Program-made: the position numbers and the translations under genes
Source: a virus
Taxonomy: Duplodnaviria > Heunggongvirae > Uroviricota > Caudoviricetes
Virus record (IMG/VR): IMGVR_UViG_3300025316_000590
Location: 134-64,133 of that record
Strand: one strand, 5' to 3'
Length of the DNA: 64,000 nucleotides
The notes under the pieces: model-generated
The model's input: the letters and a program-made list of their open reading frames with translations, nothing else
Databases searched by the model: none
What the model was told of the DNA's origin: nothing
Shown here: positions 3,427-43,618 of the stretch, in pieces
How the letters are laid out: every line of letters begins with the position of its first letter
Numbering within the stretch: position 1 is the first letter of the stretch

Positions 3427-3639
3427 ATGCGTAATCACGACGAGTTTGCTCGCCGCCTGGCTGAGAACCTGTATGAGAAGTTCCGCCGCTATGAGAAGGA
3501 CGAAGCGTCTCGTCGTGAGAAGTTCATCACTGAAGCCACAAATTTCATCGCAGCATCATTATGCCTGCGATGTTTGGCATGCCATGAACCGCATGAAGCA
3601 TGCCCGCCGCTAACCAAGGATGTATCATGTCAGCCCTAG
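3427..3639 (+). CDS. Hypothetical protein, start uncertain
   Basis: GGAGG at 3411; C-terminal CxxCxxCxxxH. Confidence 0.4.
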   Translation: MRNHDEFARRLAENLYEKFRRYEKDEASRREKFITEATNFIAASLCLRCLACHEPHEACPPLTKDVSCQP

Positions 3640-6600
3640 ATATCCCCGTTGAGATGCCCGCCCTGATTCTGTCCGTGCAGCGGGACTGCGTGGTCTTTGA
3701 ACCCGAGAAGGGCAAATGGTACTGCGCCGTCGCACCTTATCCCGATGAAGATAAAGCCGACCGCATGCGGTCGGAGATGGGCAGCGACTTCCACAGCGAC
3801 TACATCGAGCAGCCCGGAATATCAGAAGGTAACCTGTACGGCCCGGCCAAGTCTGCCGACCATGCATACGATATGATGCATGACCAGGAGGCCAACCCCG
3901 GCGGGCATCACGAGATCTCCCATGATATGATGTCCGCAGCCGACAAGAAGCACTGGCAGAAGTTCGTCAAGGACCGAACCGACGCGGGCCGCAACCGCGG
4001 ACGGGGCGGGGCCTGGAACACGAACGTGTTTGGCGACCGTGCTATTGGACGCGTTCTTAACGTGGGCCGCAGAAATCTCGCCCAGACTCCACAGGAGGGC
4101 TTCGTGGCCCGCAGCCAACGACTGGCCAGGGAGAAGGCCGCCGCCGATAAAAAGGTTGCAGATGATAAGGCGAAGGCCGAAGCTGCCAAGAAGGCCGAAA
4201 AGGAAAAGGCTGGCAACCTGAAGAAGCACGCCACGGCATCTGCACGGGCCGACCGTCGTGCGTCCCAGGTCAAATCCGCCGAGGACGCCCACCGTGCGGA
4301 TCCGTCCCACGGCAATCTGGTCAACCTGCGGCGGGCGCACAGGAACGCTTATCTAGACCGGAATGACGCAGCCCGCAAGGCCGAGAAGGCGGGCCTGTCC
4401 GATGCAGCATCCCAGCACCGCGTGAAGGCCCGCACGCACAACGCCGGATCCAAACTTCCGGACGATGCTCATTGGGTCACGATCAACGGACACCCGGTTC
4501 TCATCGGTGGCGGTAAGGACGCCGCATTGAGCCAGGATGCCACCTGCCCGGCCTGCAAGGGTGCGTGTCAGGATGGTAAGTGCCCGACCTGCGGCCAGAC
4601 GTGCCAGCCCAAGGACGACGCTGTTGGCGACGGAGCTACCGCCCTGCGGGGAGATCTGCGGGCCAGCCACGGCGAGGGCCAGGAACGGGACGCCCGTGGG
4701 AGGTTCGCCGCGACCGCACAGGAGGCCGTAGACTACGCCGCCAAGGCCAGCAAGGAAGCCATTGGCTCACCGCCCGGTCGCCGCGGAGCAGCCGCACGCG
4801 ACGCACACGGTGCGGCCAACACGGCAGCCGTGGTCGCCCTGAAGGAGTCAGCCTCGGGCCGGTCGAACGACGCTGCTTTCAAAGCCTGTGCGAGGGCTGC
4901 GAACGAGTATCATCACACAGCCGACCTGCACAACGATGCTGACCTGAACAGTTCCGATGGTCACGATTCATATCATGAAGACGCCGCCGACGCCTGTCGC
5001 TCTGCCGGCGAGGCCCTACAGGAACTGGCGAACCATCATCTCCAGTCTTGGACTGGAAGTACCAAACCAGAGGATATGGCCATGAGCCAAACTGACACCG
5101 CGTTAGCCGATGACCTAAATTTAGGTCATGGCCTAAATATTGATCTTGAGCTTGGTGACGTTGCAGGTCACGAGTTCCACGGGAATCAGTACACGCACCA
5201 GGGAGCCGTTGATGCTGTGAAGAAGGCTAGTGACGCCACCAACAGTACGAAGGGCGCACGGGCTGGCAAACGTCATGTGGACGCTTCAGATGATGCGAAG
5301 CGTCTCGTCAAGGACGGCCTGTATTCTGCCGCAGCATCACGTTGTCGCGACGCCGCCGAAGGTCATGCGAATGCCTCTGAGGCACCAAGGCTGACCCAGC
5401 TTGAACGCGGCCAGCACAGAATGGCGGCACGAGAGCATATTGAGACGGCTAAGTATCTGGAGGGAGCCGCCGAGCAGCACGGCCAGTACCTGGCAGGCCA
5501 GCGGGTAGCCATCAAACCGGAGTGGCAGGATCCCGGAGATGATGCTCGTGACTTCCGGGTCGTCGAAGACCGCGGCAATGCTGTTGTGATCACGCACGAT
5601 GCGGGACTGCCCATAAACCCGCAGCAAAGCGTGGGTAAGAATATGATCGAGCCGTATCATGACCGTCCCCAGACAGATTTGACTGCATTGCCGGCGGTAG
5701 CGCAAAGCAATGCAGTCACGGCAGCTCAGCAACTTCATGATGATACGCACGCGGCGGCAAATGATGTAAGTATGTCAGCCTACGTTGAGCACAAGTACCA
5801 TACAACGCAGGCTGGACAAGCAGCATCACGGGCTCTGGCTGCCGGGGATACACCCGAGGCCATACAGCATCATCTCGATGCTGCGGGTCATCTGAGGGAG
5901 GCTGCGGCTGTCGGCAGAACCGTGCGGGGCGTGTATGAGAACCGTGGTTTGCCCGTGGCGAAGAGTGCTGCCAATGATCCTGAGAAGCTGGAAGACCTGG
6001 CAACACGTCATACTTCGATGGCTCAGGGAAAACGCATGAGTCTCCAGGCAGATGAGATGCGTAGGCAGGCCATTGCCGCCGGCTGGAACCCGGAAGATGA
6101 TGACGAGCATGGTCGCAAGTACGGGGATGCTCACAATGCCAACGTGCAGGGCCGTCAGAATGATTTCCAGATCAAGGGCCTGAGTCATGATCTACCTATC
6201 GAGCTTGGTGACGTCGCAGGGCACGCGTTTCATGGCAACCAGTTCACGGCAACAGAATCATCTGCCAAGGCTAACGCCGCCATCCGGAACTATAAGTTGT
6301 TCCCCCTAGCCGGTACGGTGCAGAAGGGCGCACTAGCCAAGAGCATCGCGTCGACCAGCGATAACAACGTGGCCCTGGTGACGGCGAAGAAAGCCATTGC
6401 CTCCGGTGCGGCGGCAGATCATGATAAGGCCGCCGAGCAGTTCCAGAAGGCTGCTAAAGGTCATGTTCTCGCCGCCCAGCATCATGAAGAAGACGGCAGT
6501 GACGTCAGCCTGGAGTTCGCCAGCATGCACCACGCCGCCCAGAAGGCAGCAATCTCTGCGGCTCGCGAACACGAGGAGGAATCGCGACGCATACGCGGAG

Positions 6601-7379
6601 CAGGCGAGCACGTGGTCAGACTGCCATCCGCCGGCAGGATGCAGGCCCTGCGAGATAACGCGGCCAAGGCCCAGGCTGAAGCCCATCCTCCCCGCCGCCC
6701 CCGCGACGCTCGGTTGAGTCTGGATGTGCCGCTGGAGCTTGGTGACGTTGCGGGGCATGAATTCCGCGGCAATCAGTACAGTGCTGGCCAGCCCAAGGAG
6801 CCCGACGCGAAGAAGGCTATCCAGTACGAGCAGGCCGACTACGCCGCCCGCATAGCTGCGGGCGAGGCCATGAACGCCCACCACCACGGTGGACCGCCGC
6901 AGGCCCTGACGCCCGACATCGAGGATTCCATGCACCACTGGATCGGCAACCGCCTGGGCGATGCCGCGGTGAAGCACATGAAGGCCGCCAAGCTGGCCGA
7001 GGCGGTCGGAGACCAGCCCGGAACCGAAGACCATGACGAGCAGGCCCGAGCCCTGATGGCCTTCATGCACCTGCACGAGCACGGGGCCAGCGACCACGAG
7101 TTTGAAGACCGCAAGGGCAAGCTCAAGGATCATCCAGCTTACGCGGCCATGCAGGAGCGTGCTGACGCGGCCATGAAGACGGCCCAGCAGGCGGGCAAGG
7201 CGTACCGAGCATCCACGGCATCACCGGGCGAGAAAGCCTCGTTGGCAGTCAGGGCATCTGAGGCGTTTGCCGATTCTGCCGTGAAGCACCGAGCTGCCGG
7301 CAGCACGAACCGAGCGAGTAATCACTTCGGTCGGGCACGATTCTATCGTCGCCAAGCTGAGCAGCATGCCAAGGGTTGA
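3627..7379 (+). CDS. Modular cargo polyprotein 1 (three GHxFxGNQ motifs, one WVT motif, one RDxxGR motif, Zn ribbon)
   Basis: AAGGA SD before ATG 3627; motif copies at 5145, 6198, 6732. Confidence 0.8.
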   Translation: MSALDIPVEMPALILSVQRDCVVFEPEKGKWYCAVAPYPDEDKADRMRSEMGSDFHSDYIEQPGISEGNLYGPAKSADHAYDMMHDQEANPGGHHEISHDMMSAADKKHWQKFVKDRTDAGRNRGRGGAWNTNVFGDRAIGRVLNVGRRNLAQTPQEGFVARSQRLAREKAAADKKVADDKAKAEAAKKAEKEKAGNLKKHATASARADRRASQVKSAEDAHRADPSHGNLVNLRRAHRNAYLDRNDAARKAEKAGLSDAASQHRVKARTHNAGSKLPDDAHWVTINGHPVLIGGGKDAALSQDATCPACKGACQDGKCPTCGQTCQPKDDAVGDGATALRGDLRASHGEGQERDARGRFAATAQEAVDYAAKASKEAIGSPPGRRGAAARDAHGAANTAAVVALKESASGRSNDAAFKACARAANEYHHTADLHNDADLNSSDGHDSYHEDAADACRSAGEALQELANHHLQSWTGSTKPEDMAMSQTDTALADDLNLGHGLNIDLELGDVAGHEFHGNQYTHQGAVDAVKKASDATNSTKGARAGKRHVDASDDAKRLVKDGLYSAAASRCRDAAEGHANASEAPRLTQLERGQHRMAAREHIETAKYLEGAAEQHGQYLAGQRVAIKPEWQDPGDDARDFRVVEDRGNAVVITHDAGLPINPQQSVGKNMIEPYHDRPQTDLTALPAVAQSNAVTAAQQLHDDTHAAANDVSMSAYVEHKYHTTQAGQAASRALAAGDTPEAIQHHLDAAGHLREAAAVGRTVRGVYENRGLPVAKSAANDPEKLEDLATRHTSMAQGKRMSLQADEMRRQAIAAGWNPEDDDEHGRKYGDAHNANVQGRQNDFQIKGLSHDLPIELGDVAGHAFHGNQFTATESSAKANAAIRNYKLFPLAGTVQKGALAKSIASTSDNNVALVTAKKAIASGAAADHDKAAEQFQKAAKGHVLAAQHHEEDGSDVSLEFASMHHAAQKAAISAAREHEEESRRIRGAGEHVVRLPSAGRMQALRDNAAKAQAEAHPPRRPRDARLSLDVPLELGDVAGHEFRGNQYSAGQPKEPDAKKAIQYEQADYAARIAAGEAMNAHHHGGPPQALTPDIEDSMHHWIGNRLGDAAVKHMKAAKLAEAVGDQPGTEDHDEQARALMAFMHLHEHGASDHEFEDRKGKLKDHPAYAAMQERADAAMKTAQQAGKAYRASTASPGEKASLAVRASEAFADSAVKHRAAGSTNRASNHFGRARFYRRQAEQHAKG

Positions 7380-7509
7380 TCATACTTAGATCATTGTAAA
7401 ATGAGAAAAGTAATGGTATCGCTAAGATTGCCCCAACCGTGTATTATGGAAGTCAATGCAGTTAAGCCCTTGCAGTGCTGCTGCGTCATATCGTATCATA
7501 GGTAACATC

Positions 7510-8205
7510 ATGTCGAGCCTGAACAAGACCATTGACACCTTTTTGGGAATCAAGCCGGGCCACGCTTCCGACATGACCTTGAGTCATGATAACCTTCGTG
7601 GCGGTGACCTGGTTCTGGGTGATGTTGCCGGCCACAAGTTTCGCGGCAATCAGTACACGGACGGCGGCGATCCCGATAAGGCTTCCGATAAGGCCATCGA
7701 CGCCACGAACGATGCTTACGATAAGAACACGCCCGAGGCCCATAAGACCGCAGCCGACTTGAACCGGCGTGCGGCCAGTGTCATCAACGAGGCCCTCGAC
7801 GATTTCCCAGCCGCCCCCAAGGTTCCATACCCCGCGTCACGGTACGAGGATGAAGGTTACGAGCCATTAGAAAAGTGGCAGGAGAACAAGCGGGAGTATC
7901 AGAACAAGGTCAAGGGTCATCTCGAAGAGGCGGCCAATCACGACGCCGAAGCAACAAAGCTCGCGTCAGCCGTCACCGTTCCCGCCGGCAAAATCCCGTC
8001 GCACGGATATCAGGCCGGTGTGCCCTACGCGGGTCATCTTCCCGCAGGCGATTACGTCGAGCACAATCCCGCCGGTGGCAGCGCGACGCGATCCCAAAAC
8101 AATCAGGTGCTGGTCACGCCCAAGGGGCAGTCGCCAAGCGTGCATGAGCACAGCCAGTACTACGTCAACAAAGCTGCATGGGAGCAGCACAAGGCGGGCA
8201 AATAA
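7510..8205 (+). CDS. Cargo protein with leader and one GHKFRGNQ motif
   Basis: LVLGDVAGHKFRGNQYT at 7609. Confidence 0.75.
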   Translation: MSSLNKTIDTFLGIKPGHASDMTLSHDNLRGGDLVLGDVAGHKFRGNQYTDGGDPDKASDKAIDATNDAYDKNTPEAHKTAADLNRRAASVINEALDDFPAAPKVPYPASRYEDEGYEPLEKWQENKREYQNKVKGHLEEAANHDAEATKLASAVTVPAGKIPSHGYQAGVPYAGHLPAGDYVEHNPAGGSATRSQNNQVLVTPKGQSPSVHEHSQYYVNKAAWEQHKAGK

Positions 8206-8244
8206 GCCCGCGATCATCCGAAGCCGAATTAGGAGATTTCCGAA

Positions 8245-8748: not shown

Positions 8749-8769
8749 ACCATACGGAGCACCATTACA

Positions 8770-9837
8770 ATGGCCACATTGAAGACCTACCAGTCCAGCG
8801 AAATGCCGCCGCGGCGGAAGATTCGCTACTTCCAGTTCGCCCTGCTGCGAATGGCCCGCCTCATGTACACTGGGCCGGGCACGACAGCGGGCTACATCTC
8901 GGCCACGCAGTACGCGGCCATCGACGCCTTCTACAAGAAGCCGTTTCGACGGGCGGTGCTGACGTCAGGCTCGGACCTTCTACCCTGGGCCAAGGCTGCC
9001 ACACAGCCGGGCGGTGCGGGGCAGAACTACCGCATCGGCGACATCCTGACCCTGGTGCAGACCGGGGCGTCGGGCGGCAAGGTGGTGGTGGCCAGAATCA
9101 GCGCGACGGGCGGTGTGACCGCCGTCTTGCCCTTGGTTCCCGGTACGGGATACAAGGCGGGCTTCGCCACGACCACGGCTGTCAACTCCTCCGGTGCGGC
9201 CAGCAGCGGCACGGGTGCGGTCATCGGACTGCGGGCGGTCTACGGTACGGTGGTGGACGTCCTCGATCAGGTGCGGGTTGACGTGCAGAACATCGCCGCA
9301 GGTCAGACCTCCCAGCTTTTCGGACCCAACGTTTCGCAGGGTGTCAGCGACGGCTACGGAGTGTCCGGTAACGCTCGCCAGCCTGGAACCTTGCTGACGA
9401 CGGGCGGAAGTCTGGCTCAGTACAGCGAGGCTTACAACATCAAGGACTGGGGCAACCCCAACACCACGATGCGGTGGTTGACCAGCATCACGGCCACGAC
9501 CAGTATCGGTTCGCCCGGAGCCTACGCGGGCGGTACGTCCTACGTTCCTGGGATGCTTGCGACAAACGGCAGCACCTACATGTGCTACCGGGCGATTACC
9601 GGCACAGCACCGACCGCCGCCGGCATCCCGAACGGTCTGGGTCTTACGGGTCTCATCGGTCCCTACAACTTCTGTAAGATTCTTGGCATAGCCGCACCAG
9701 CAGCGGGCACCGATCCGTATTGGGTCATCCTGCCCAACGGCGGAACCAAGAACGCGGGCCAGCTACTGAACCCGATTGGAGTCACCATCGCGTCTATGGT
9801 TGGACGCACAGCAGCCGTGCTGCAGGGTATTGTCTAA
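8770..9837 (+). CDS. Putative virion structural protein, Gly/Thr/Ala-rich, possible carbohydrate-binding-like segment
   Basis: GQNYRIGDILTL..GGVTAV..GTGY beta motifs; YAGGTSYVPG...YMC...YW. Confidence 0.55.
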   Translation: MATLKTYQSSEMPPRRKIRYFQFALLRMARLMYTGPGTTAGYISATQYAAIDAFYKKPFRRAVLTSGSDLLPWAKAATQPGGAGQNYRIGDILTLVQTGASGGKVVVARISATGGVTAVLPLVPGTGYKAGFATTTAVNSSGAASSGTGAVIGLRAVYGTVVDVLDQVRVDVQNIAAGQTSQLFGPNVSQGVSDGYGVSGNARQPGTLLTTGGSLAQYSEAYNIKDWGNPNTTMRWLTSITATTSIGSPGAYAGGTSYVPGMLATNGSTYMCYRAITGTAPTAAGIPNGLGLTGLIGPYNFCKILGIAAPAAGTDPYWVILPNGGTKNAGQLLNPIGVTIASMVGRTAAVLQGIV

Positions 9838-9865
9838 TCAAATGATCTTACAAAGGAGAATCGTC

Positions 9866-11404
9866 ATGACGAGGATGTTCGATAACCGTCCGGTGGGTGA
9901 CTGGGCCATGAGCCTGAGTAACCAGCTTTTCGGTACGAAGGAAATCAAGCTGGGCACGAGCAGCAAGCCGACGACGGATGTTCTCCTTCTGTCCCTTGGC
10001 TGCGGCGAGTTTGAAGTTCTTCGATTGGGCGATGTGACGGGACACGAGTTCCACGGGAACCAGTACGGGCCGGGCAGCATCCACGGTGCGAAGACCCGCG
10101 AGTTCCTGAACAACGACCTCAAGAAGGGCAACAACATCATCAGCGTCGCCCACCGTAAGGTCTTCTCCGCAGCCAACGGTGAACTGGTCAAGAAGCACCG
10201 TGGCATCGCAGCGGACGGCGGCGAGCATCCGAACAAGGGCAAGAAGACCGAGGAGCTGTACCCGCAGGGCGTCACCCGCGAAGCGGTCGGTCGTTTCCAC
10301 GTCGGGTTCAATTACGAGAAGAACGTGCAGGCCCAGCAGGGCCGTGAGGGTCTCGATCAGGACTTCGAGAAGCAGCCCATGTGGGTCTCGAAGGCCCATC
10401 CCGAAGGTGCCGGCCAGCACGATGCCGACAACCCCCAGATCATCAAGCACGTCGATACCGGACGTGAATACCTCCAGCTTCGTCCGCACACCGACGCCAA
10501 GGGCAACGTGCGACGCGAGCACGAGCAGTGGCGTGACAATGCCACGGGCCGCGTCCTGCCGGCGGAAGAGGTGAAGGAACTCAAGAAGAATCTCCTGCAA
10601 GGCGGCAACAGCAAGCCCAAGGCAGCGGAGCAGGGCGGCATCGAGAAGAAGATTCCCGTGCGGGCCATCCCGCTAGAGGATATCTATTCCCTGCGGGCCA
10701 GCCGCGACAAGGGATGGAAGAAAATCAACCAGGCGTCCCACGATGAAGCCGCAGCCGCACCGGCAGCCCTGAGTCGCGGTGATCTGAAACTGGCCTTCGG
10801 CAAGAAGGGTGCCCCGAGCCGTGCGTCCATGAACGCCCTGATGGCCAAGCACGATGCCGACTGCGACAAGTGGGACGCGAAGGGCGGTGGTCAGGACACC
10901 TCCCTGAGCCACGGCGACCTCGTTCTCGAACAGGCCGGGCACGCGTTCCACGGCAACCAGTACGCCGGTGGCGAGGCTGGTGCTGCGGTGGGAGCCCGTG
11001 CGGCGGCCAAGCGGATTGTCGAGCGTGCCCCAGGTGAAGGCAAGCCCGTTCTCCGCAGCGACGTCAAGCCGGCTGCCCGTCAGACCAAGAGTTACGGGCG
11101 GGCCGAGAAGAAGGTGGTGGCCGCCACATCGAATGAAGAGCATGAGCAGATGCGAATTCTGACCATGAACGACCGCGACTTGGCCACTCGCATCAACAAG
11201 ATCAAGAACAAGGACAAACTGGAACGCTTCGTCGGTGCCCTTAAGCGGGCGGGAAAACACGACCTCGCCAAGGCCGCGGGTGAACGTTTGGTGTCCCTGA
11301 GCCGTGGCGAGAACCTGCCTCTGGTGTTCAGCCAGGGTGCATGGGTTCTGGAACGTCCCGCGACAGTGGTGATGGCCGAGCGTATGGCTGCTCTGGCGAA
11401 GTAA
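9866..11404 (+). CDS. Modular cargo polyprotein 2 (two GNQ motifs)
   Basis: AAGGAG SD; motifs at 10019 and 10919. Confidence 0.8.
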   Translation: MTRMFDNRPVGDWAMSLSNQLFGTKEIKLGTSSKPTTDVLLLSLGCGEFEVLRLGDVTGHEFHGNQYGPGSIHGAKTREFLNNDLKKGNNIISVAHRKVFSAANGELVKKHRGIAADGGEHPNKGKKTEELYPQGVTREAVGRFHVGFNYEKNVQAQQGREGLDQDFEKQPMWVSKAHPEGAGQHDADNPQIIKHVDTGREYLQLRPHTDAKGNVRREHEQWRDNATGRVLPAEEVKELKKNLLQGGNSKPKAAEQGGIEKKIPVRAIPLEDIYSLRASRDKGWKKINQASHDEAAAAPAALSRGDLKLAFGKKGAPSRASMNALMAKHDADCDKWDAKGGGQDTSLSHGDLVLEQAGHAFHGNQYAGGEAGAAVGARAAAKRIVERAPGEGKPVLRSDVKPAARQTKSYGRAEKKVVAATSNEEHEQMRILTMNDRDLATRINKIKNKDKLERFVGALKRAGKHDLAKAAGERLVSLSRGENLPLVFSQGAWVLERPATVVMAERMAALAK

Positions 11405-11422
11405 ATATCAAAGGAGACCGCC

Positions 11423-11944: not shown

Positions 11945-11953
11945 GGTGGTATC

Positions 11954-19232: not shown

Positions 19233-19460
19233 ATGAACGCTCATGATGAGATGGCAATTGAGGTGCGGGTTTTACTCGTGAAGACCGGAGACACGACCCT
19301 GGGTACGATCTCCCACAGGACGCACATATCATGCCCCGTGCTGATCCAGATGCTGGAGGCAAACAAGGAATCATTCTGGTTTCTGAGAAAGGCCCCAGCA
19401 CGTGAATCCGACGTCGGGCTGACGTCGGTGGGTATGGCGAAAGCCTCGGAGGAACAATGA
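19233..19460 (+). CDS. Hypothetical protein
   Basis: GGAGG SD; stop overlaps next start. Confidence 0.6.
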   Translation: MNAHDEMAIEVRVLLVKTGDTTLGTISHRTHISCPVLIQMLEANKESFWFLRKAPARESDVGLTSVGMAKASEEQ

Positions 19461-31991: not shown

Positions 31992-32040
31992 ATCGATCTT
32001 CTACTTCCTAAATGGTCGTACATGAGTTATATTGAATGTT

Positions 32041-33225: not shown

Positions 33226-33232
33226 GTTAAAT

Positions 33233-36200: not shown

Positions 36201-39200
36201 CTGGGCAGAAGAATACCAAGTTCATCGCCAAGCTGCTAGAGGAGGCCCACATGCTGCACGACAGGCTAAGTGGAGGCAGCGGCAAGGCTGGCATGCGTAT
36301 CCAGATGAACCTCGACGATTCGCTTGAATTGGGTGACACTGTTGGGCACGAGTTCCGTGGGAACCAGTGGACAAAGCATCTTCTTGCCAAACTTCCAACG
36401 ACGGACGATAAGTCTCAGTCTGGATTCATTCGCCCCGACGCCCAATTGGTAGATGTCGGGCACAGCGATGCATTTGACGATGTCAAAACACACGCGGCGG
36501 CGGCTCTCGGGGAAGATGGTGTTTACGAGGACGAGCCTCGTGCCATGAACGCTCTGGCCAAGGCGATGCATGTTGGGTTCATTCGTCATACGGGGAACGG
36601 AAGTTTTGAGATACACAAAGAGCCGACGGATAGCCAGTATCAGACTATTCAGGATATGGCAGAGGATGCCGTGCAGCGAGGCTACCGAGCACGGGTTCAA
36701 ATGTACGGAGCCAAAAATATACCATCGGGTGCCGCGGATAACGCATACGTCAGTGCGAACAGTGATGCTGAGGTCAGGGGTATATCAGATCGAGTTCGGA
36801 TGTACTATCAAACTGGCAAGCAGCCGTACGTGTCGCCACTACGCCTTGGTGACGTTGCTGGTCACGAGTTTCACGGCAATCAGTGGACAAATCACGGACT
36901 GTCAAAGTTACCCACCACAGAAAATCAGGATGACGCCGGTTTCATTCGGCCAGATGCGAAGCTGATTGATATGGGTAGAAGCATCGGCTTCAAGTTCGAC
37001 AAGAACGGTAGGGAATTAAAGGGTGGCCCTTTAACGCATCTAAAGGCGGCTGGTAGCCACAGTCAGCTAGATGTGGCATTCGCACATGGTTTCATTCGGT
37101 ACTACCCAGAGCATCAATCTTTTGATATCCACAAGGAACCGAATGATGCACAGTACGAACGCATCGCGGCGATGGTGCATAAGCATGCTGCTGAAGATAA
37201 GGTATCCAACCTGGAACTATTTGATAGCAAGGGCGAGAGCACGTACATTGAGATAGAACCAGAAACCCCTGATTTGGCCGTGAGCAAGATAAGGTCGTTT
37301 TACTCAGGTGTTAAACCGTATGCGTCTCCGCTACGCCTCGGTGACGTAGCGGGCCATGAGTTTCATGGTAATCAGTGGACGGAGGGTGCGGCTCGCCTAG
37401 AGGTCGCTGCCATCAAGGCGAGTAAGGCCCGCGAGGCACTGGACGCCTTGATCACCGCGAAGGCCAGCCCGGAGGCCAAGGAACCGCTGGCCGCGGCGTG
37501 GCGGAAGGCACAGGACGAATACGCGGATATCCATCGCGAGGTGTCGAACATGCCACCGCAGCCGCCACCGCCGTTGGGTAGCCTCACAGGCCCCGACGAT
37601 GGCAGCCGGTTCGACGAACTGCGGAAGAACGGCCTGCTGGTGAAGAACGGTCGCCCGACTGGCACGCGAGACGTAGGGCCGGTCGATATCAAGGGATGGC
37701 GAGTCGGCAGCCGAGATGACAAGTACGGTCGTGGTGTGTTCTATGCATCGGACGATCAGGGGGCGAAAGCTTACGCATCCCTGCATCCAGGCGAGGAGGT
37801 CAAGGCTGATGATCTTCACCTCACCAATGTCCTCCTGGCCGGTCATCAGGACGACGTGAGCATGAAGCTCTTCGGCAAACACTACGGCGATATGATGGAT
37901 GGCCTGGCTGCTCGCAACAAGAGCGAAGTTGTGGGTGGCCAGAAGTTCGATGTGAAACTTGCCAAAGAAGCGAAGAAGCGTGGTTACGACGCCATCATCT
38001 ACACCGCACCTGCCCCGCCGGCTAGTGGTGAAATCGCCGTGTTGGGCAGCAAGAAGCGTGCAGCGAAGCTAAGCCTGGACGTACCGCTGGAACTGGCCCT
38101 AGTGACTTTCGACGATATCAAGGACGGGGGCCGGAACCGTGTGCAGCGGGACTTGGCACAGGCGGCTGCTGACACCGATACCGAAGCCTCCGAGGCTGCG
38201 AAGAAGGCCGGGACACTACTGATGTCGGTGCGTGTAGAGGGCATCGACCAACCTGTAGAATTCGGATATGGGCAGGGCATGCTTCATGATGTTGATTGCA
38301 CCAGCACACAAAACGATGTTGCCCTTGACGTAGCCCTTAGCGGAGTCGATGCGGTCAACGGAAACAATCATAGGGTTGATGCGTCGGTGTCCATGACGCC
38401 GTCTGGTTCCAACCTTACGGGCGTAAATCATGGGCAACCCTGTGTAGAAGCATGTGCCGTTTTGACTGTTCCAAAGGTCACGGATGTAATCGAAGTCGAT
38501 ATTGCACTTCCTATGCGTTTGGCGACATCGCAGGCGAACGTTGTCCATGACGGTACGAAGGGCGAAATCGAGCGATTTGAACTTCCTGGTTTTGTAAGCA
38601 GCCTTAGCTCGCTTTCTGCATCCGTGACAGACACCCTCAAAACTCGTTCTGCCAGTCTTCAGCAGAACTTTATTAAAACTTCCCACGGGAAAGTCGTCGC
38701 CACACCGCTTGCAGCGTTTTTGACCAGTACGGATGGCCTCGGCGGTGCGGTTTCTGGCACGAATCGAGCGTTGGTTGAACAGCGTCGAGTCGTCAATGAA
38801 CCGACGAACATCGGAGGCAAACTTATCCGTGAAAAACATAATCTTCTGGTCGCATCGACCAGAAGTACCGATAGGAAAATGAATAGTGTAGTCGATGCCA
38901 ACGGTAGGCGACAGGGCTCGAACCACTGTACGCCGCCATCCATCGTAGCGGGTTGTGACCCTGCGTCCCGTGGCAGTCTTGATTTGCCGATAGAGATCGA
39001 ACAGCGGTCGGGAATCGACGGGAAATCCAGAGTGGACAGTAGCAATTCGTCGTCGTATGATGACCATACTAAAACCTCCTTAGTAGGTTGCGGTCATGCC
39101 CCTGGTGTTTCCAGCACGCAGGGGCAACTTCTATGTTCTAGCATAAACACTGATGCTGATCAAGATGTTAGGCATCAACTAGCGAAAGCTGCATTGGAAA

Positions 39201-42200
39201 CCGACCTTCATTCTAGTCCAGCACAGCAGCAGTCTGGATCATACAAGAAGGGCCGTGTCACCATAGCTGGACTGGGTATCGCCATCGAGAACCCGCACAT
39301 GAGCACCCGCTGCGGTATCGGAGCGAATGGCCCGTGGTCTACCGTGATGAAGGGCGGGCACTACGGTTACATCTACAAGATCGACGGCAACTGGGCTCCG
39401 CGGAGCGAGGCTGATGGTGATCACATGGATATCTTCGTGGCCCCCGACATCGGGAATGGCCCGGAGACCGATACAGTCTACGTCATCGACCAGACCAAGG
39501 TGGGTTCCCCCGGCGAGTTCGACGAGGCCAAGGCCATGTTCGGCTATCCCAACGCCGACGCCGCAGTGAAGGCGTACTTCGACAGCTACAGCCCCGGCTG
39601 GGCGAACGTAGCCGACATGGTACAGATACCTCTGGGTCAATTTAAAGCGTGGGTGGAGTCGGGGAAGACTGCCGAGCCCGCGGGCCTGCTGAAAAATGGA
39701 ACTGCGGTTACGTTATCCCACGACGAGGACGAAGAGGATGATGATGACGATACGATTGTGGAGCCCAACGTTCTGGGCGGGCATAACTACCGCAAGCAAG
39801 ATGGCCGCACCGCCTCGACTCGCAGAAACGTGTTCGGCGGCGAGTCCCAGGTGGGCGACGGTGACTTCGAGACCCGGCCCGGTGTGGGCGGCACGAAGCA
39901 CGTCAGTGGCCATCTGAAGTTCAGCACGGACGTACCGCTGGAGCTTGGCGATGTCGAGGGCCATGCCTTCCACGGCAACCAGTGGACGCAGTCGCCCTTG
40001 GCGAAGCTGCCCACGACCACGGATACTAAATCAGCCGGCTTCATCCGACCTGACGGGAAGCTCGTCGACCTGAACCGCAACAAGCGTGAGGGTTACTTGA
40101 GCCACAGCAACGCCGCCGAGGGAAACCTGCACCAAGAGCTTGCCCGCAACGGGTTCATTCGCTGGTCGCCTGACGGATACAAACTGGACATCCGGTCCGA
40201 GCCTACCGACGAGCAGTACGCGGCCATCTCCGATATTATTGCGAAACACCACAAACCCGTAGACCTGGAGATGGGCGACCAGACCGGCAAGGCCGATGTG
40301 GGATCGTGGGAGAACGGTGTGGCCGCGGTCAAGAAGCTGAAGGACTGGTCGTCGAATGGTGCCCTGTCTACGGCAATTGCCGCCAGCCTTGAGTCAATCT
40401 ACGCTGCCCGTGATGAACTGGCACTGAGCGACGTATCATTCAAAACATTCAGCCCAACGCAGGAGAAGCTGCCAATGGGTAACTACGATTACGAATATAA
40501 CCATCCGCTGTGCAAGAAGCACAACTATCGTCACAGCCGCAGGGGCATGGGGTGCCCGTATTGCCGAGATGATGGCAGCCAGCCTTGGTGTAGTGCGTGT
40601 GGTGAAGGTATCCCGCTAGGCGAGGTAAAGCAGGACGAGCCGCATACACATGACGTGCATAAGACGTGTGCGGGTAAGCACCTGACCGCTCTGGAAAAAC
40701 TACGGCCATTGATGGATTACGAAACGCAGTGGGAGAAAGCCAAAATGCCAGAAACCAAACCACAGCAGGGCGGGATGCTCGCCATGTTCTCACGCGATGA
40801 TCGGCAGGCTATCCGTTTGTCCCGTCGCAAGAAGAAAAAGGAATTGGTCAAGTTCACCGAGGAGACTGCACCACTACAGGCCCGTGCCTTGCTCCACTCC
40901 CTGGCCATGCGATTGATTGCCTGCCGCGACGCCGGTTGGAACCGCCAGCAAATCTACACCGAGCTTGGCCGGTACTATAACTCGCAGGTCGCCGATATCT
41001 GGGACGCCGCCGAAAACCAGGAGGTGAAGCGGATGGTCGTTCAGGGCGAGATTGCAGCCTCGCTGGAGAAGACCGTGAAGTGCCTGGACTGTGATCAGGA
41101 CTGCGACGAGAACGGCAAGTGCCCGAAGTGCGGTGGGGCAGTGAATGTGTTCACGGGTAACGCGTTCGGTCTATCAGCGGACGTCATCACGGCGTTCCGA
41201 GACCTGTTCGATGCCTACCTGAAAGGTGATGTTGTCCTCGGCGACCTGCCTGGGCATACGTTCCACGGTAACCAGTACGGTGGCCTGCCGGTGTACGATA
41301 AGCAGCCTTGGGGCGACGCCTGGCAGAAGCGTATGGCCCGCAGCGGTCTTGATCCTACCAAGGTGAAAACCGTTCTGGTCAAATCTTCATCGGGAGGCCG
41401 ACCGCACTACTCCAAGATGCTGGCTCATCCTACCGAGCCGAGGAAGGCGTGGGTGGGTGAAGCGGGCAACGTCCACGAGGAGGTAGTTCCGCACCATAAC
41501 GTGTATCATGCGAATTCGCAGGGGAACGTGGTTCTCCTTGGGCCAAAGCCAGATCATGAACTCAAGTTTGTGGAGGATGGTAACGTGACCGCATCATTAG
41601 ATATTCCGCTGGAACTGCACATGGCAACCGGCAAACGTGATGAAACCATCGGCATCGACTTCGATGGTACGCTGGTCAAACGGCTGGATGGCCCGTACAA
41701 CCCCGCCGCCCACGGCGACCCCATCGACGAACGCTGGGACGAGGTGCGTGCCGCCCTCGACGCGGGTAAGCAGGTGGTGATTTTTACGGCCCGCGTGGCA
41801 AACGATCCGAACAGCATCGCCCGCGGAGCCATCGAAGACCTGTGCATGGAGGAACTGGGGCAGGTACTTCCGATCACCAACGAGAAGACCCCGAACATGA
41901 TCAGAATCATCGACGACCGAGCCACGGGCGTGACTCCGGACGGTACGGACATGCCCAGCTTGGCTGCGTCCCTCGATATTCCTCTGGTGCTTGGCGATAC
42001 CCCAGGCCACGAATTCCACGGAAATCAATGGACAGGAGGAGGCGGTGCAGCTCAGGGTGCAGCCAACGCAGTCGCGTCAGGCGATGCGGCGATGCTTGTG
42101 CGGATGGGTCAGCCCCACCCAGCCTTCACCAACTTCAAGCAGCCCATGCGGAAGCTCCTGCGGTGGTGTGGCCGGGAGGGCATGAACCTCCAGCAGGCCA

Positions 42201-43618
42201 AGAACGCCCTGAACCGTGCTGGGCTTAAAGTGCCGCCGGATCCAACTATTCGGGCAGAACTGCCCATCGGAGCCCGCGGCCTCACACGCGGCGGGCGTGG
42301 GGCCGACATGCCCAACCTGACCGACGAGCAGAAGGCTATTCTGCGTGGCCGCATTGGGGGCACCGACCCCGGCGTGGCTGGCCGCCAAGCCGCCGCAGCC
42401 GCTGAGTGGCAGAAGCAGCAGGCTGCCAAACCCGCCCCAGCAGCCAAAGCACCCGCCGCAGCCCCAGCCGCTCCGCCGGCCCAGAAGTATGCTGATCATA
42501 AGGATCGAGCCGACCGGGCCGATGCTGCCGAACGTGTTGTTCGAGATCGTATCATCAGAGGGGAACGTGGGGCGGGTGTGTATCGTGATCGTGCTGTGGC
42601 CTGCCTGGCAGCGGCAAAGATTCATGACGACGCGGCGGCAGCCGCCCGTGCGGAAGGGAAGAACACCGAAGAGTCGCAGCACGGCCATAGGGCCGATGAG
42701 CACGAGGTCAAGGCCGCGAAATACAACGACAAACTCGACGCGGCGAACAAGGTCACCGACCAGCACCCAGACGTCAAGAACGCTGTGAAGTCCATCGACG
42801 ACGCGATGGCCGCGACGCGGAACCAGCCCGCTCAACCGGCACAGGTATCGATCACCCCCGCCGACAAGGTCAAGCGGGAAGGTGAACTAGCCAGCACCCC
42901 GGCCAAGAAGATCGGGGATATCCCCGGCGTGGATAAGTGGAACCACGTCAGCCAGACATTCCTAATCACGGATCAGGACGGCAAGAAGCACGTGTTCAAG
43001 CCCGTCAACGGCGAGGCTGACTACTCGGGCGTGTGGTACGAAAGCTCGGGTTCAGGGCCTGGAGCCCGCCGCGAAGCCGCCGCGTACAGCATGGCCAAGT
43101 GCGTAGGCATGACCGACATCGTGCCGGTGACGGTTATGCGTAACCAGCCGAAAATTAAATCAGAAGGCGGGGAGACCGTGTCTGGTACTGGTAGTGCCCA
43201 GGACTTCTGCGACGGCTGTAAGACGGCACGCAAGTCGGCCAATGCCTGGGACGGGGAGAAGGATGCAGCCCGCTGTGCGGCGTTCGATTACGTCATGGGC
43301 CTGACCGACCGGCATCAGAACAACTGGCTGATTGACAAGGACGGAGCGGACGACGGCAAAATACACCTCATCGACCACGGCTACTCCCTGCCAGACGTCG
43401 ATAAGTCCCTCGACGACCGCGGGTTCCTCGGACACGCCAGCCAAAACCGTACTCCGATCTCTGATGAGATCAAGTCGGCGTGGCGAGGCAAGTGGGGTGA
43501 CATTGAGGTGGCCCTGAAGAAGCTGGACATCGGGCCGAAAGCCATCGAGAAGTGCAAGGCCCGCTATGATAACCTCCTGCGTGCTAAAAACTTCCGAGAA
43601 ATCAGCCTGCGGGCTTGA
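33233..43618 (+). CDS. Giant polyvalent cargo polyprotein 5 (3461 aa)
   Basis: Starts MIIDIPIFLGD like 19457; GNQ motifs at 33251, 35723, 36323, 36839, 37331, 39938, 41231, 41984; HExxH, ART-like, PPase-like, HAD and kinase modules. Confidence 0.85.
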   Translation: MIIDIPIFLGDVEGHAFHGNQWTGNAKLAPDTGGGDGGMTEVEEGHDQTMRGEFWLQGSTAMSADGDIDDMNHEAYAIQQARSDLADSLGVDSDDDDADTIIEKYAEDHPDEADILRGSDYSTPEAKKLFEEIGLSPDTLSVAQGFGDSRLWAAAEHGWVRVAGNSVQTVGIDSSKMSEIADGLHDAYGEDVETQSFDVEVVTHDSARPGMVVNSHTYRDVPFQVLGEGNMRRFSEYRDAAFSLSGDTPKPTGDKNNRGESGYWITTHGGHHVFILEGGSGIDEDKLKAAAATLPSTPGFGTAQSRAASRAAGNVISGNTYRVKDLISHYGGQWDGKTKDWVMPNAESTKMMRDVMAGKYNASTASPAPRVSSPAAAPLVIHGATFGIKDVIKSAGGRWNPNGKNWLMPNQEAVEKVRDHVTKNSIKGVNMPDAAKEPAPAAKPEADAVEARQAVRVARANRDGKGTLSRDAENATDHSSRLDNVAMQKKTPESLTAALAATADAATKRRAAADAMIDHNNQIYRDHINWAETHEQRKASLEQELHHPEVAQAAAAEAALIAKPVAWKSHRAGGDVTARSETQQGFTVQSQRGEYSASPDEGYVGQLRGYRVYFKGSDGSQESLGTVSDMIGASGMVNKHLSKNKDHTLSLEVPIDIGRDASFFAPGVPVSYNGLVQHVRDPQVQKNADRIISGTTNKPLIQRRIESDSDLAHIFGGKIDLPTAQHAADITCDELNLLRLTVKFMVGDSGLTNDGFQRVGHYKNDTAQLWGAGQTIPVLLHEIVHHVMTHSPDCEPEDRHSPLFNSTYYRVVNAYLQAIGSTVCLSLDVPIELGDVAGHEFRGNQYTVGIAKDYFPKEMHPKGIGESFVHTTTVKAGSRAEAASKYWAEHGPSHLPRMIPEGRLPRKVSVHVSSSGFKPGMGSETGSGPSRLMPILVHGPGAPQPLERTFKTMKHAANELQAIRNDFASAAHDPIDQLKARVDAVGKWAAGQKNTKFIAKLLEEAHMLHDRLSGGSGKAGMRIQMNLDDSLELGDTVGHEFRGNQWTKHLLAKLPTTDDKSQSGFIRPDAQLVDVGHSDAFDDVKTHAAAALGEDGVYEDEPRAMNALAKAMHVGFIRHTGNGSFEIHKEPTDSQYQTIQDMAEDAVQRGYRARVQMYGAKNIPSGAADNAYVSANSDAEVRGISDRVRMYYQTGKQPYVSPLRLGDVAGHEFHGNQWTNHGLSKLPTTENQDDAGFIRPDAKLIDMGRSIGFKFDKNGRELKGGPLTHLKAAGSHSQLDVAFAHGFIRYYPEHQSFDIHKEPNDAQYERIAAMVHKHAAEDKVSNLELFDSKGESTYIEIEPETPDLAVSKIRSFYSGVKPYASPLRLGDVAGHEFHGNQWTEGAARLEVAAIKASKAREALDALITAKASPEAKEPLAAAWRKAQDEYADIHREVSNMPPQPPPPLGSLTGPDDGSRFDELRKNGLLVKNGRPTGTRDVGPVDIKGWRVGSRDDKYGRGVFYASDDQGAKAYASLHPGEEVKADDLHLTNVLLAGHQDDVSMKLFGKHYGDMMDGLAARNKSEVVGGQKFDVKLAKEAKKRGYDAIIYTAPAPPASGEIAVLGSKKRAAKLSLDVPLELALVTFDDIKDGGRNRVQRDLAQAAADTDTEASEAAKKAGTLLMSVRVEGIDQPVEFGYGQGMLHDVDCTSTQNDVALDVALSGVDAVNGNNHRVDASVSMTPSGSNLTGVNHGQPCVEACAVLTVPKVTDVIEVDIALPMRLATSQANVVHDGTKGEIERFELPGFVSSLSSLSASVTDTLKTRSASLQQNFIKTSHGKVVATPLAAFLTSTDGLGGAVSGTNRALVEQRRVVNEPTNIGGKLIREKHNLLVASTRSTDRKMNSVVDANGRRQGSNHCTPPSIVAGCDPASRGSLDLPIEIEQRSGIDGKSRVDSSNSSSYDDHTKTSLVGCGHAPGVSSTQGQLLCSSINTDADQDVRHQLAKAALETDLHSSPAQQQSGSYKKGRVTIAGLGIAIENPHMSTRCGIGANGPWSTVMKGGHYGYIYKIDGNWAPRSEADGDHMDIFVAPDIGNGPETDTVYVIDQTKVGSPGEFDEAKAMFGYPNADAAVKAYFDSYSPGWANVADMVQIPLGQFKAWVESGKTAEPAGLLKNGTAVTLSHDEDEEDDDDDTIVEPNVLGGHNYRKQDGRTASTRRNVFGGESQVGDGDFETRPGVGGTKHVSGHLKFSTDVPLELGDVEGHAFHGNQWTQSPLAKLPTTTDTKSAGFIRPDGKLVDLNRNKREGYLSHSNAAEGNLHQELARNGFIRWSPDGYKLDIRSEPTDEQYAAISDIIAKHHKPVDLEMGDQTGKADVGSWENGVAAVKKLKDWSSNGALSTAIAASLESIYAARDELALSDVSFKTFSPTQEKLPMGNYDYEYNHPLCKKHNYRHSRRGMGCPYCRDDGSQPWCSACGEGIPLGEVKQDEPHTHDVHKTCAGKHLTALEKLRPLMDYETQWEKAKMPETKPQQGGMLAMFSRDDRQAIRLSRRKKKKELVKFTEETAPLQARALLHSLAMRLIACRDAGWNRQQIYTELGRYYNSQVADIWDAAENQEVKRMVVQGEIAASLEKTVKCLDCDQDCDENGKCPKCGGAVNVFTGNAFGLSADVITAFRDLFDAYLKGDVVLGDLPGHTFHGNQYGGLPVYDKQPWGDAWQKRMARSGLDPTKVKTVLVKSSSGGRPHYSKMLAHPTEPRKAWVGEAGNVHEEVVPHHNVYHANSQGNVVLLGPKPDHELKFVEDGNVTASLDIPLELHMATGKRDETIGIDFDGTLVKRLDGPYNPAAHGDPIDERWDEVRAALDAGKQVVIFTARVANDPNSIARGAIEDLCMEELGQVLPITNEKTPNMIRIIDDRATGVTPDGTDMPSLAASLDIPLVLGDTPGHEFHGNQWTGGGGAAQGAANAVASGDAAMLVRMGQPHPAFTNFKQPMRKLLRWCGREGMNLQQAKNALNRAGLKVPPDPTIRAELPIGARGLTRGGRGADMPNLTDEQKAILRGRIGGTDPGVAGRQAAAAAEWQKQQAAKPAPAAKAPAAAPAAPPAQKYADHKDRADRADAAERVVRDRIIRGERGAGVYRDRAVACLAAAKIHDDAAAAARAEGKNTEESQHGHRADEHEVKAAKYNDKLDAANKVTDQHPDVKNAVKSIDDAMAATRNQPAQPAQVSITPADKVKREGELASTPAKKIGDIPGVDKWNHVSQTFLITDQDGKKHVFKPVNGEADYSGVWYESSGSGPGARREAAAYSMAKCVGMTDIVPVTVMRNQPKIKSEGGETVSGTGSAQDFCDGCKTARKSANAWDGEKDAARCAAFDYVMGLTDRHQNNWLIDKDGADDGKIHLIDHGYSLPDVDKSLDDRGFLGHASQNRTPISDEIKSAWRGKWGDIEVALKKLDIGPKAIEKCKARYDNLLRAKNFREISLRA
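38216..39067 (-). CDS. HNH endonuclease with Zn ribbon and AntA-like N-terminus, nested antisense in polyprotein 5
   Basis: AGGAGG SD; CKRC..CHGC; QNGTCFYTG; SVDRIDSAKGYVKGNIVLC..N.MK. Confidence 0.85.
   Translation of the reverse strand: MVIIRRRIATVHSGFPVDSRPLFDLYRQIKTATGRRVTTRYDGWRRTVVRALSPTVGIDYTIHFPIGTSGRCDQKIMFFTDKFASDVRRFIDDSTLFNQRSIRARNRTAEAIRTGQKRCKRCGDDFPVGSFNKVLLKTGRTSFEGVCHGCRKRAKAAYKTRKFKSLDFALRTVMDNVRLRCRQTHRKCNIDFDYIRDLWNSQNGTCFYTGLPMIYARKVGTRRRHGHRRINPMIVSVDRIDSAKGYVKGNIVLCAGAINIMKHALPISEFYRLVDALYTHRHQ
39135..39163 (-). promoter_or_regulatory. Sigma70-like promoter for the nested HNH gene
   Basis: Minus strand TTGATC-N17-TAGAAC with TG extension; hairpin at 39097-39126 follows. 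Confidence 0.5.

Follow-up and report, generated by a model that had tools for sequence, protein, structure and literature searches.

The window analysed here is a stretch of 64,000 nt (positions 134 to 64,133 of IMG/VR record IMGVR_UViG_3300025316_000590) from the 192-kb genome of an uncultured phage. Within it we identified a 13-residue peptide, here termed the header, with the consensus G-D-x-x-G-H-x-F-[HR]-G-N-Q-[YWFH], eight residues of which are invariant. The header is present in 20 copies, one of them a variant, in seven ORFs (A to G). These ORFs, the head genes among them and the positions of the headers, in window coordinates, are as follows.

3600–7379, + strand: ORF A, open from 3600, with a 1008-residue gene call (P0093) from ~4353; alternative header RDARGRF at 4686–4706; headers at 5154–5192, 6207–6245 and 6741–6779
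7456–8205, + strand: ORF B, 249 residues; header at 7618–7656
9776–11404, + strand: ORF C, 542 residues; header at 10028–10066; variant header LEQAGHAFHGNQY, beginning LEQAGH, at 10925–10963
11423–11944, + strand: ORF D, 173 residues; leader (V/M)QNYIVDLFLS, then header at 11474–11512
11954–14416, + strand: ORF E, 820 residues; leader MQNFIVDMFLS; alternative header RDENGRW at 12032–12052; headers at 12500–12538 and 13415–13453
14913–15899, + strand: 328-residue ORF; leader MSIIVDLFLS, of the same type as in ORFs D and E; alternative header RDDHGRW at 15009–15029; GHxFxGNQ absent
16437–19202, + strand: TerL, the large terminase subunit, split by an intein with a LAGLIDADG domain
19457–24490, + strand: ORF F (P0091), 1677 residues, starting MIIDVPIIL and then GD; headers at 19484–19522, 20162–20200 and 22760–22798; C-terminal PI3/PI4-kinase-like module
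24761–26962, + strand: portal protein, with a partial Portal_Mu match and a PHROG portal assignment
33233–43618, + strand: ORF G (P0002), 3461 residues, starting MIIDIPIFL and then GD; headers at 33260–33298, 35732–35770, 36332–36370, 36848–36886, 37340–37378, 39947–39985, 41240–41278 and 41993–42031; DUF5710, InPase (residues 1977–2154) and a C-terminal PI3/PI4-kinase-like module
46029–50708, + strand: P0151, 1559 residues, with a long N-terminal extension, a protease domain and an acidic, scaffold-like C-terminus
~48363–48908, + strand: Mu gpI-like protease domain of P0151 (residues 779–960), by homology

A six-frame scan for GH.F.GN returned exactly 20 matches, all on the + strand, in frame and within the seven long ORFs. 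This is the count given by a first-pass annotation of the same DNA, whose coordinates lie 6–9 nt upstream of our GD starts because they were counted from [LIV]-x-L; it puts these and related genes at 27.7 kb, but the seven ORFs sum only to ~24.6 kb. A degenerate DNA pattern of the header likewise matched 20 times, whereas the figure for 100 dinucleotide-preserving shuffles was 0.00, and no further copies were found in the remaining 128 kb of the genome. All codons for Gly, Asp, His, Phe and Asn are employed in the header, third-codon-position identity at identical residues is 0.49, and the 39 nt of the header have a mean identity of 0.71. Synonymous positions thus vary freely and selection acts on the peptide, as had been proposed. 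These values also bear on the idea that the repeats are recombination joints conserved as DNA for module swapping. Modules have been reshuffled between this phage and a relative, P0159, which is a mosaic of ORF F and ORF G modules with homology breakpoints mostly at junction elements. However, because synonymous sites vary so freely, there is no long identical DNA on which to recombine, and it is the peptide that unrelated phages conserve; this explanation is already disfavoured, and we give it almost no weight.

The header forms the second, usually present part of a two-part junction, in which a hydrophobic, lineage-specific upstream element comes first and a flexible Gly-rich linker and module come after. 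In this phage the upstream element is S-L-D-[VI]-P-[LI]-x-L, and (S/N)LD[VI]P[LI]xL precedes approximately half of the header copies, in keeping with the earlier remark that the peptide often follows LD[VI]P; in other phages the element is [VI]-x-K, x-E-F or [RK]-x-[LA]. A Gly-rich stretch lies directly downstream of the header, and the segments between motifs, compared within this phage, are mostly without relation to each other, so that the earlier description of a peptide placed ahead of otherwise differing modules holds. The header is the N-terminal head of the module behind it. The candidate cargo ORFs of this phage have leaders in common, MIIDVPIIL and M(Q)N[YF]IVD[LM]FLS. The same upstream element precedes three kinds of header, and copies without a header occur at additional sites in ORFs F and G. 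Elements of this type, together with junction-like sites in P0151, are as follows.

20564–20587, + strand: junction element SLNVDITL in ORF F, adjoined by a third kind of header
20588–20647, + strand: third kind of header in ORF F, GGPGSGNHGHSGRPGHRGGS
21344–21367, + strand: junction-like SMDVDIIL in ORF F, no header downstream
38072–38095, + strand: junction element SLDVPLEL in ORF G, no header; ALVTF... comes next
38975–38998, + strand: junction element SLDLPIEI in ORF G, no header downstream; the modelled InPase fold lies 54 residues further on
41594–41617, + strand: junction element SLDIPLEL in ORF G, no header downstream; kept in P0159 as TLDIPIEL followed by HMATG
46095–46121, + strand: junction-like DVPVLTL before AS in P0151
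48408–48431, + strand: junction-like PAIEL before SGD in P0151

This phage has at least three alternative headers, of which GDxxGHxFxGNQ is one, and the putative cleavage signal and the header are separable.

In an AF2 model, the InPase domain of ORF G has a pLDDT of 73–93 and the next junction and header ~30, a low value for which shallow alignments are a possible cause; no globular structure is predicted for the header region. This prediction is also consistent with proteins that are never cut, in which the header and its Gly-rich tail would be a conserved flexible connector or domain cap and the giant proteins would be packaged and ejected whole. Full-length transfer of polyvalent proteins is cited by Iyer et al. 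(PMC5512222), N4 vRNAP and TraC1 being known members of that class transferred uncut. A connector offers no reason, however, for eight invariant residues to be kept across phages of many phyla, or for trailing a lineage-specific element that also stands alone, and we consider it unlikely.

The candidate enzyme for cleavage at the upstream element is the protease domain of P0151. This domain has six homologues (E 2e-37 to 5e-24), three of which carry PF10123, and the H, S and H columns are invariant in the protease-domain alignment (A3). Because no Pfam match was obtained at E≤1 when the segment was scanned directly, we assign residues 779–960 to the Mu gpI-like prohead proteases (PF10123) by transitive homology. 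P0151 itself is without the GHxFxGNQ header, and no peptidase family match was found in the seven ORFs at E≤0.01. We recognised no major capsid protein and no MuF domain in this genome.

A profile search of 1.84e9 representatives, a step proposed in the first-pass annotation together with a check of domain boundaries, found the header to be widespread, with 2451 protein clusters at E≤1e-3 and 105 at E≤1e-30, nearly all of them metagenomic; ORF G, with 8 copies, ranked second. The header is not special to this phage. Of the earlier interpretation, peptide-level selection, the heading of modules and the head-gene context stand, and in other phages the effector repertoire agrees with it. No model in Pfam or NCBIfam covers the peptide, and the literature searched holds no description of it. 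Header proteins carry up to eight or nine copies per polypeptide. Among the best 150 of the 2451 proteins, the first copy lies ≤45 residues from the start in 46%, the tail beyond the last copy is at least 117 residues in 90%, the median spacing is 217 residues, and the shortest leaders are of 6 residues; the header is thus frequent near N-termini and rare at C-termini. It also stands directly behind Portal_Mu, Phage_portal_3, MuF, S78, S78_2 and Mu-like_Pro domains, ahead of a C-terminal extension, the protease–scaffold boundary being the expected position of maturation cuts. The gene neighbours encode portal, TerL and protease. In a Pfam census, the header proteins hold the effector set of polyvalent, or capsid-cargo, proteins (MuF, ADP-ribosyltransferases, kinase, InPase, ParB and others), which is in line with the earlier idea of an effector carrier.

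Agreement at position -1 within header proteins is 0.846, compared to 0.431 when shuffled (z 23), although this pattern may partly mirror shared ancestry of the copies, because variable positions inside the header are also consistent within a protein. The residues at -1 are K, L, F or A, resembling the P1 preferences of prohead proteases, and stand-alone header proteins always retain at least 6 residues upstream of the header. A cut after x-L and before GD would agree with the lineage-consistent -1 residue, with the header-less SLDVPLEL and with these retained residues.

The invariant residues are identical across phages of Proteobacteria, Verrucomicrobiota, Actinomycetota, Bacillota, Bacteroidota and Saccharibacteria. 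Such constancy in six host phyla would suit a universal host partner over fast-evolving phage proteins, and the cargo domains are host-directed enzymes. The header might then act in the host after ejection, binding a conserved bacterial component such as a chaperone, the membrane, DNA or a metal and refolding, placing or activating the effector, with cleavage as a separate matter. Two observations weigh against this role and make it, in our estimation, distinctly unlikely: the header also splits prohead-protease domains of three families from scaffold-like C-terminal parts, and it lies behind portal domains, neither portal nor protease proteins being effectors. Moreover, the variable header positions are lineage-specific and therefore indicate a phage-encoded partner.

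A short, extremely conserved peptide between the modules of viral polyproteins, found whatever the protease family, could also act on itself, through an autocatalytic cut (Asn cyclisation at G-N-Q, assisted by His or Asp) or through ribosome skipping like that of eukaryotic viral 2A peptides. Asn-dependent self-cleavage does occur in other virus capsid proteins. However, the header is unlike the 2A consensus D(V/I)ExNPGP, and we know of no bacterial case of a 2A-type mechanism. A 13-residue peptide without a fold is also an improbable catalyst, and self-action leaves unexplained both the adjoining lineage-specific element and a position behind leaders of 6–30 residues; we hold it to be highly improbable.

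We hypothesize instead that the seven ORFs encode phage-type polyvalent (head-cargo) proteins, built as chains of interchangeable modules. The precursors would reach the procapsid via their leaders or, in other phages, via fusion to portal, MuF or protease. There, the phage's own prohead protease, in this case the Mu gpI-like domain of P0151, would recognise the upstream element as its cleavage site and cut directly ahead of Gly-Asp, such that each freed module bears the header as its new N-terminus. The header would most likely be a docking peptide for a conserved head-assembly component, aiding processing, cargo retention or both. A function beyond plain substrate recognition is suggested because the block far exceeds what the primed side would need and is identical with three protease families. 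Judged from sequence, we give an even chance to this reading, in which head-cargo polyproteins would be cut at their upstream elements and the header would tag them for loading or processing. Thousands of effector-carrying proteins from other uncultured phages, of many host phyla, are also punctuated by the header, which is missing from domain databases; the header is thus probably an undescribed mark for capsid-cargo cutting and loading.

To our knowledge, how a phage chooses its capsid-borne proteins is understood only in a few models (T4, P1 and phiKZ-like phages), each with a private signal. Should the header serve as a tag for loading or processing, metagenome sequence alone could reveal which proteins are capsid cargo, anti-defence and host-takeover enzymes among them, and the tag would offer a compact handle to load foreign proteins into phage heads. 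More speculatively, the header could be a universal, portable cargo label that phages of many bacterial phyla would read through some conserved feature of HK97-type head assembly, coupled to a lineage-specific protease site, with RDxxGR[WF] and GSGN[FH]GHxGRPG as alternative labels. We regard this extension as possible but doubtful; were it true, the two-part junction would suffice for the loading, release and injection of any enzyme.

Among the nearest known systems are the polyvalent proteins, giant multi-domain proteins that phages and conjugative elements encode (Iyer, Burroughs, Anand, de Souza and Aravind 2017, PMC5512222). Like the header ORFs, these are encoded among head genes and combine unrelated effector domains. 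Here, ORF G joins the unrelated DUF5710, InPase and PI3/PI4-kinase-like domains, and TerL, portal and the protease-scaffold gene lie interspersed among the ORFs, as the first-pass annotation had observed. The polyvalent repertoire matches the header-associated InPase, ART-PolyVal, MuF, ParB, Zeta, 2H and NUDIX domains. Processing of the polypeptides was predicted in that study by zincin-like metallopeptidase domains, which are common though not universal in the class and were not found in these seven ORFs, whereas here two-part junctions lie at the boundaries and the candidate enzyme is a prohead protease. In the text of PMC5512222 we found neither a GNQ-type motif nor a linker or junction element.

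Fusions to MuF or portal are frequent among the header proteins of other phages, and in many of them the header lies right behind a MuF domain. This organisation recalls the MuF polymorphic toxins of temperate phages, in which a toxin that varies from protein to protein forms the C-terminal part behind a MuF head domain (Jamet et al. 2017, PMC5576092); the text of PMC5576092 does not mention a junction motif.

In T4, a capsid-targeting sequence on IPI-III and Alt is removed by the prohead protease gp21, and the cargo is injected with the DNA (PMC9024508). As is proposed for the header system, a short N-terminal peptide on unrelated head-internal proteins combines targeting with a protease site, and a short N-terminal peptide is shared here too, both as leaders and as the header near the start of the proteins noted above. 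The T4 tag, however, is of ~10 residues, lineage-specific and ends [LI]-x-E, whereas the putative sites in this phage end in Leu before Gly and those of other phages in Lys, Phe or Ala; the header is a 13-residue block conserved over many phyla and repeated within one polypeptide. In phiKZ-like giant phages (SPN3US gp245, phiKZ gp175), the prohead protease processes numerous proteins inside the head by recognising a short motif, and the cargo ejected into the host amounts to tens of MDa (PMC7411985, PMC10052503). That motif, S/A/G-x-E, lacks a conserved downstream header, and its substrates are mostly separate gene products.

Two further likenesses concern P1 and the encapsulins. In P1, the N-terminal 30 residues suffice for a 250-kDa anti-restriction protein to be taken into the head, although P1 cargo consists of separate proteins, unlike motif-punctuated polyproteins. 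The cargo-loading peptides of encapsulins, which are short, conserved and borne on a flexible linker, bring diverse enzymes into an HK97-fold shell; this is a functional analogy only, these peptides being of other sequence, usually C-terminal and without proteolysis, unlike the header. Among sequenced isolates, the header was found only in Xanthomonas phage Rb1, where it resides in an 'internal head protein' beside DarA- and DarB-like genes, a likeness to P1 by context.

We identified exactly 20 matches to GH.F.GN in a six-frame scan of the window, all of them on the + strand, in frame and within seven long ORFs (A-G), in agreement with the repeated peptide described by the first-pass annotation, whose coordinates lie 6-9 nt earlier because they were counted from [LIV]-x-L. 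Nineteen of these copies read GDxxGHxF[HR]GNQ[YWFH], a 13-residue peptide that we refer to as the header and that opens successive modules of the ORFs; the remaining copy reads LEQAGHAFHGNQY. Upstream of the header lies a hydrophobic junction element, S-L-D-[VI]-P-[LI]-x-L, and a junction plus header can be written as SLDVPLEL-GDVAGHEFHGNQWT-linker (in what follows, ↓ marks the end of the junction element, the proposed cut site where Gly-Asp follows).

Header-bearing ORFs
3600-7379, + strand, ORF A
7456-8205, + strand, ORF B
9776-11404, + strand, ORF C
11423-11944, + strand, ORF D
11954-14416, + strand, ORF E
19457-24490, + strand, ORF F
33233-43618, + strand, ORF G

The window spans bases 134-64133 of its source, a single IMG/VR virus record of 192,133 bp and 57.7% G+C that CheckV rates as 99% complete and linear. 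Nearly all long ORFs of the first 51 kb lie on the + strand, and no header copy occurs in the two thirds of the genome outside the window. The degenerate DNA pattern was matched 20 times versus 0 in 100 shuffles. At the invariant residues, third-position identity is 0.49 and every synonymous codon is in use; this free choice of codons indicates selection on the peptide and not on the DNA, as had been proposed at the first pass. The same variation at synonymous sites contradicts a DNA-level recombination joint, which we therefore reject.

The segments between copies are mostly unrelated to one another, the two exceptions being a module of ~165 aa that recurs as F1, G3, G4, and G6 and the kinase-like C-terminal modules of F and G. 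The latter (22760-24490 and 41993-43618) are paralogs with 36% identity over ~590 residues, each with a PI3/PI4-kinase-like segment and a Gly-rich AKLAPDNGGG directly behind the header. Pfam recognized only InPase, a PI3/PI4-kinase-like region, and DUF5710 in the seven ORFs, PHROGs tied the InPase region to DarB-like, minor head, and virion proteins, and most window modules had no relatives among the other header proteins compared. A related polyprotein of 1626 aa from another contig (P0159) presents the F and G modules reordered as a mosaic, at 57-74% identity. Its homology breakpoints mostly coincide with junction elements, some with a header and some without (e.g. SLEVPVDV↓G, SLDVPLEL↓GVSF, TLDIPIEL↓HMATG, and SLDLPLVL↓GD), so that the evolutionary units are delimited by junctions.

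The header is widespread, yet uncatalogued. At least 119 IMG/VR loci match the exact degenerate DNA pattern, with 188 ORFs and up to 10 copies in each among the matches listed, and their consensus is [VIL]-x-K-G-D-x-P-G-H-P-F-[RH]-G-N-Q-[YW]-T-x-G-x-G-G, a Gly-rich stretch following the block. A 34-position header profile, the kind of search proposed at the first pass, was scored against 1.84 billion representative proteins and matched 2451 at E<=1e-3, 497 at E<=1e-10, and 105 at E<=1e-30, almost all of them metagenomic and unnamed; ORF G ranked second (as P0002) and ORF F was also recovered (as P0091). No Pfam or NCBIfam model matched any of 150 header instances, even at E<=10. A full-text literature search for several spellings of the motif found nothing relevant, and text searches of the polyvalent-protein (PMC5512222) and MuF-toxin (PMC5576092) papers for motif, linker, and junction found this peptide in neither. 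Short header queries run by tblastn against 50,697 deposited phage genomes recovered a single isolate, Xanthomonas phage Rb1; because tblastn is insensitive with queries this short, the result at most suggests rarity among isolates. In Rb1 the header lies at residue 736 (LD↓GDFSGHPFRGNQH) of a protein annotated as 'internal head protein', with DarA- and DarB-like genes adjacent. The DNA pattern occurs at 59 places in 185,579 species genomes, of which ~27 are genuine (Verrucomicrobiota, Proteobacteria, Actinomycetota, Bacillota, Bacteroidota, Chloroflexota, and Saccharibacteria) and 32 look like chance, missing the aromatic residue at +12. A match to a Microviridae 'DNA pilot protein' was likewise dismissed as chance, the protein being without the motif, and the plasmid collection gave one marginal match only.

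Pfam annotation of 77 IMG/VR header ORFs revealed head and protease families (MuF, portal, S78, S78_2, and Mu-like proteases), ADP-ribosyltransferases (ADPrib_exo_Tox and ART-PolyVal), Zeta toxin, pentapeptide repeats, Top1B, NUDIX, and PI3/PI4 kinase. Precomputed Pfam results for 120 further header proteins add PARP, GNAT, ParB_N, InPase, 2H phosphoesterase, Tpt1, and others. Phage-type polyvalent proteins have this effector repertoire (PMC5512222). Recurrent neighbors in header loci include the Mu-type portal (17 loci), an SNF2 helicase with DUF5710 (15), TerL (14), ParB-DUF4417 (14), and the S78_2 protease (7).

Ten ORFs were scanned singly for the place of the header relative to the recognized head domain. 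It lies behind the end of that domain and ahead of a C-terminal extension, except in an ORF of locus L002, where it falls inside the span of the Mu-like_Pro match, which reaches into the scaffold part.

Head domain and header position
Portal_Mu, residues 92-459; header at 593
Phage_portal_3, residues 79-443; header at 506
MuF, residues 177-287; header at 320
S78_2, residues 13-134; header at 277
S78, up to residue 143 or 178; header at 247 or 259
Mu-like_Pro; header at 207

The architecture of protease, header, and extension recurs in all three protease families (S78, S78_2, and Mu-like). In the S78_2 (XkdF-type) protease proteins of locus L011 (6590-8209) and relatives, DUF6496 (VMREFExGxLKSSSGKxV...QAMAIAxSE) stands directly before the header, giving the fixed order protease, DUF6496, header, extension. 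Among the best 150 proteins, the first header begins within 45 residues of the start in 46%, the shortest leaders being six residues; in 90% at least 117 aa follow the final header, and the median spacing is 217 aa; together these features indicate that the peptide belongs to the module that follows it. In an AF2 model of ORF G residues 1915-2330, the InPase domain has a pLDDT of 73-93, and residues 2231-2251, which hold the following junction and header, a pLDDT of ~30. This speaks against a motif inside folded domains, the placement that would have refuted the first-pass reading, with shallow alignments as a caveat. The AF2 model of the S78_2-header fusion from L011 was poor overall (mean pLDDT 55.7, header region <50), and no docking of the header in cis was readable in it.

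The junction consists of two separable parts. Residue -1, before Gly-Asp, is mostly K; it is L here, and other proteins have F or A. Its within-protein agreement is 0.846 versus 0.431 when shuffled (z 23); positions -3 and -2 are lineage-consistent in the same manner. The variable header positions 2, 3, 6, and 8 are also lineage-consistent and synonymous sites are not, which points to a phage-encoded partner of the header rather than to gene conversion. We built a weight matrix from the eight positions preceding each of the 19 headers that have that many residues upstream; in a whole-genome scan, its top score was a header-less site.

Junction elements without GDxxGHxFxGNQ
20564-20587, + strand, site followed by a different header, GGPGSGNHGHSGRPGHRGGS
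21344-21367, + strand, header-less junction
38072-38095, + strand, top-scoring header-less site, SLDVPLEL↓ALVTF
38975-38998, + strand, header-less junction, SLDLPIEI↓EQRSG
41594-41617, + strand, header-less junction, SLDIPLEL↓HMATG

The alternative header of ORF F (20588-20647) sits directly behind its junction element, and a near-identical GSGNFGHxGRPGxVGGS follows '...L↓' in four other header proteins among the best 150. A further header, (Q/A)xRDxxGR[WF]A, occurs behind leaders or junctions at 4686-4706 (ORF A), 12032-12052 (ORF E), and 15009-15029 (the ORF at 14913-15899), and RDxxGR[WF] is enriched in header proteins elsewhere (14 in 165,319 residues versus ~0.6 expected). These header-less elements and alternative headers show that the lineage-specific element is separable from the universal header and that the slot behind it takes at least three kinds of header or none.

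The neighboring genes include a candidate for the processing enzyme.

Head-region genes
16437-19202, + strand, large terminase subunit interrupted by a LAGLIDADG-domain intein
24761-26962, + strand, Mu-type portal
46029-50708, + strand, 1559-aa protease-scaffold protein (protease region at about 48363-48908, residues 779-960)

Residues 779-960 have six homologs (E 2e-37 to 5e-24), three of which carry Pfam Mu-like_Pro (PF10123), and in the homolog alignment one His, one Ser, and a second His column are invariant and the C-terminal part is scaffold-like. The protease call is by transitive homology, because a direct Pfam scan of the segment returned nothing at E<=1; BLASTP against the Mu-like_Pro ORF of L002 likewise found no similarity. 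Complex prediction from residues 1-195 of this alignment and the header alignment gave 'no answer' (score 0.01), which carries no weight either way. The major capsid protein is unrecognized, given that Phage_capsid (PF05065) and Mu-like_gpT (PF10124) had no match anywhere in the 192-kb genome; MuF (PF04233) had none either. In the protease-scaffold protein, the first 778 residues form an N-terminal extension rich in Ala, Lys, and His, and ~30 Asp residues occur in a run; the acidic run with its flanking sequence is repeated in the small adjacent ORF at 50749-51099.

Most safely, the seven ORFs can be described as head-region polyvalent proteins of the phage type in which a conserved, undescribed header marks the modules. 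We hypothesize that the upstream element is a putative cleavage site of the phage's prohead protease, given that it is lineage-specific, ends in residues typical of P1 preferences, and is kept even with nothing upstream, and that the unit sits where maturation cuts would be expected (the protease/scaffold boundary, and the boundary between portal or MuF and the C-terminal extension). The first-pass reading, in which packaged polyproteins are cut after x-L and free header-tagged effectors, is partly supported, its observation of the peptide holding in full. To cleavage plus tagging we assign roughly an even chance, the balance being shared by modules joined through uncleaved connectors, a host-directed function of the header, self-cleavage, and the DNA-level joint. 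A host-directed function is countered by headers on non-effector proteins, which favor a function in morphogenesis over one in the host. The header is identical in phages whose proteases and portals differ, which favors either a conserved partner or a chemical role.

By analogy, the header system may work similarly to the capsid-targeting sequence of T4 and its processing by gp21, to the DarB signal of P1 (PMC9024508), and to the ejection proteins that are processed in phiKZ-like phages. It differs from these in its two-part junction, in a header conserved across host phyla, and in a unit that recurs up to eight or nine times within one chain. Domain content and genomic setting place the ORFs in the polyvalent-protein class, although that class has a proposed processing metallopeptidase and the system here is without one.

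The ORF G segment at 38096-38974 (+), between the header-less elements at 38072-38095 and 38975-38998, is mostly overlapped by a 283-aa ORF at 38216-39067 (-), a proposed HNH endonuclease; Pfam assigned no family to the product of either strand at E<=0.01. The terminase intein matches Intein_splicing (residues 56-476) and LAGLIDADG_3 (residues 249-342), the ORF at 31407-31991 has a weak HNH_5 match, and a GIY-YIG endonuclease gene (32032-33024) lies ~200 nt upstream of ORF G.
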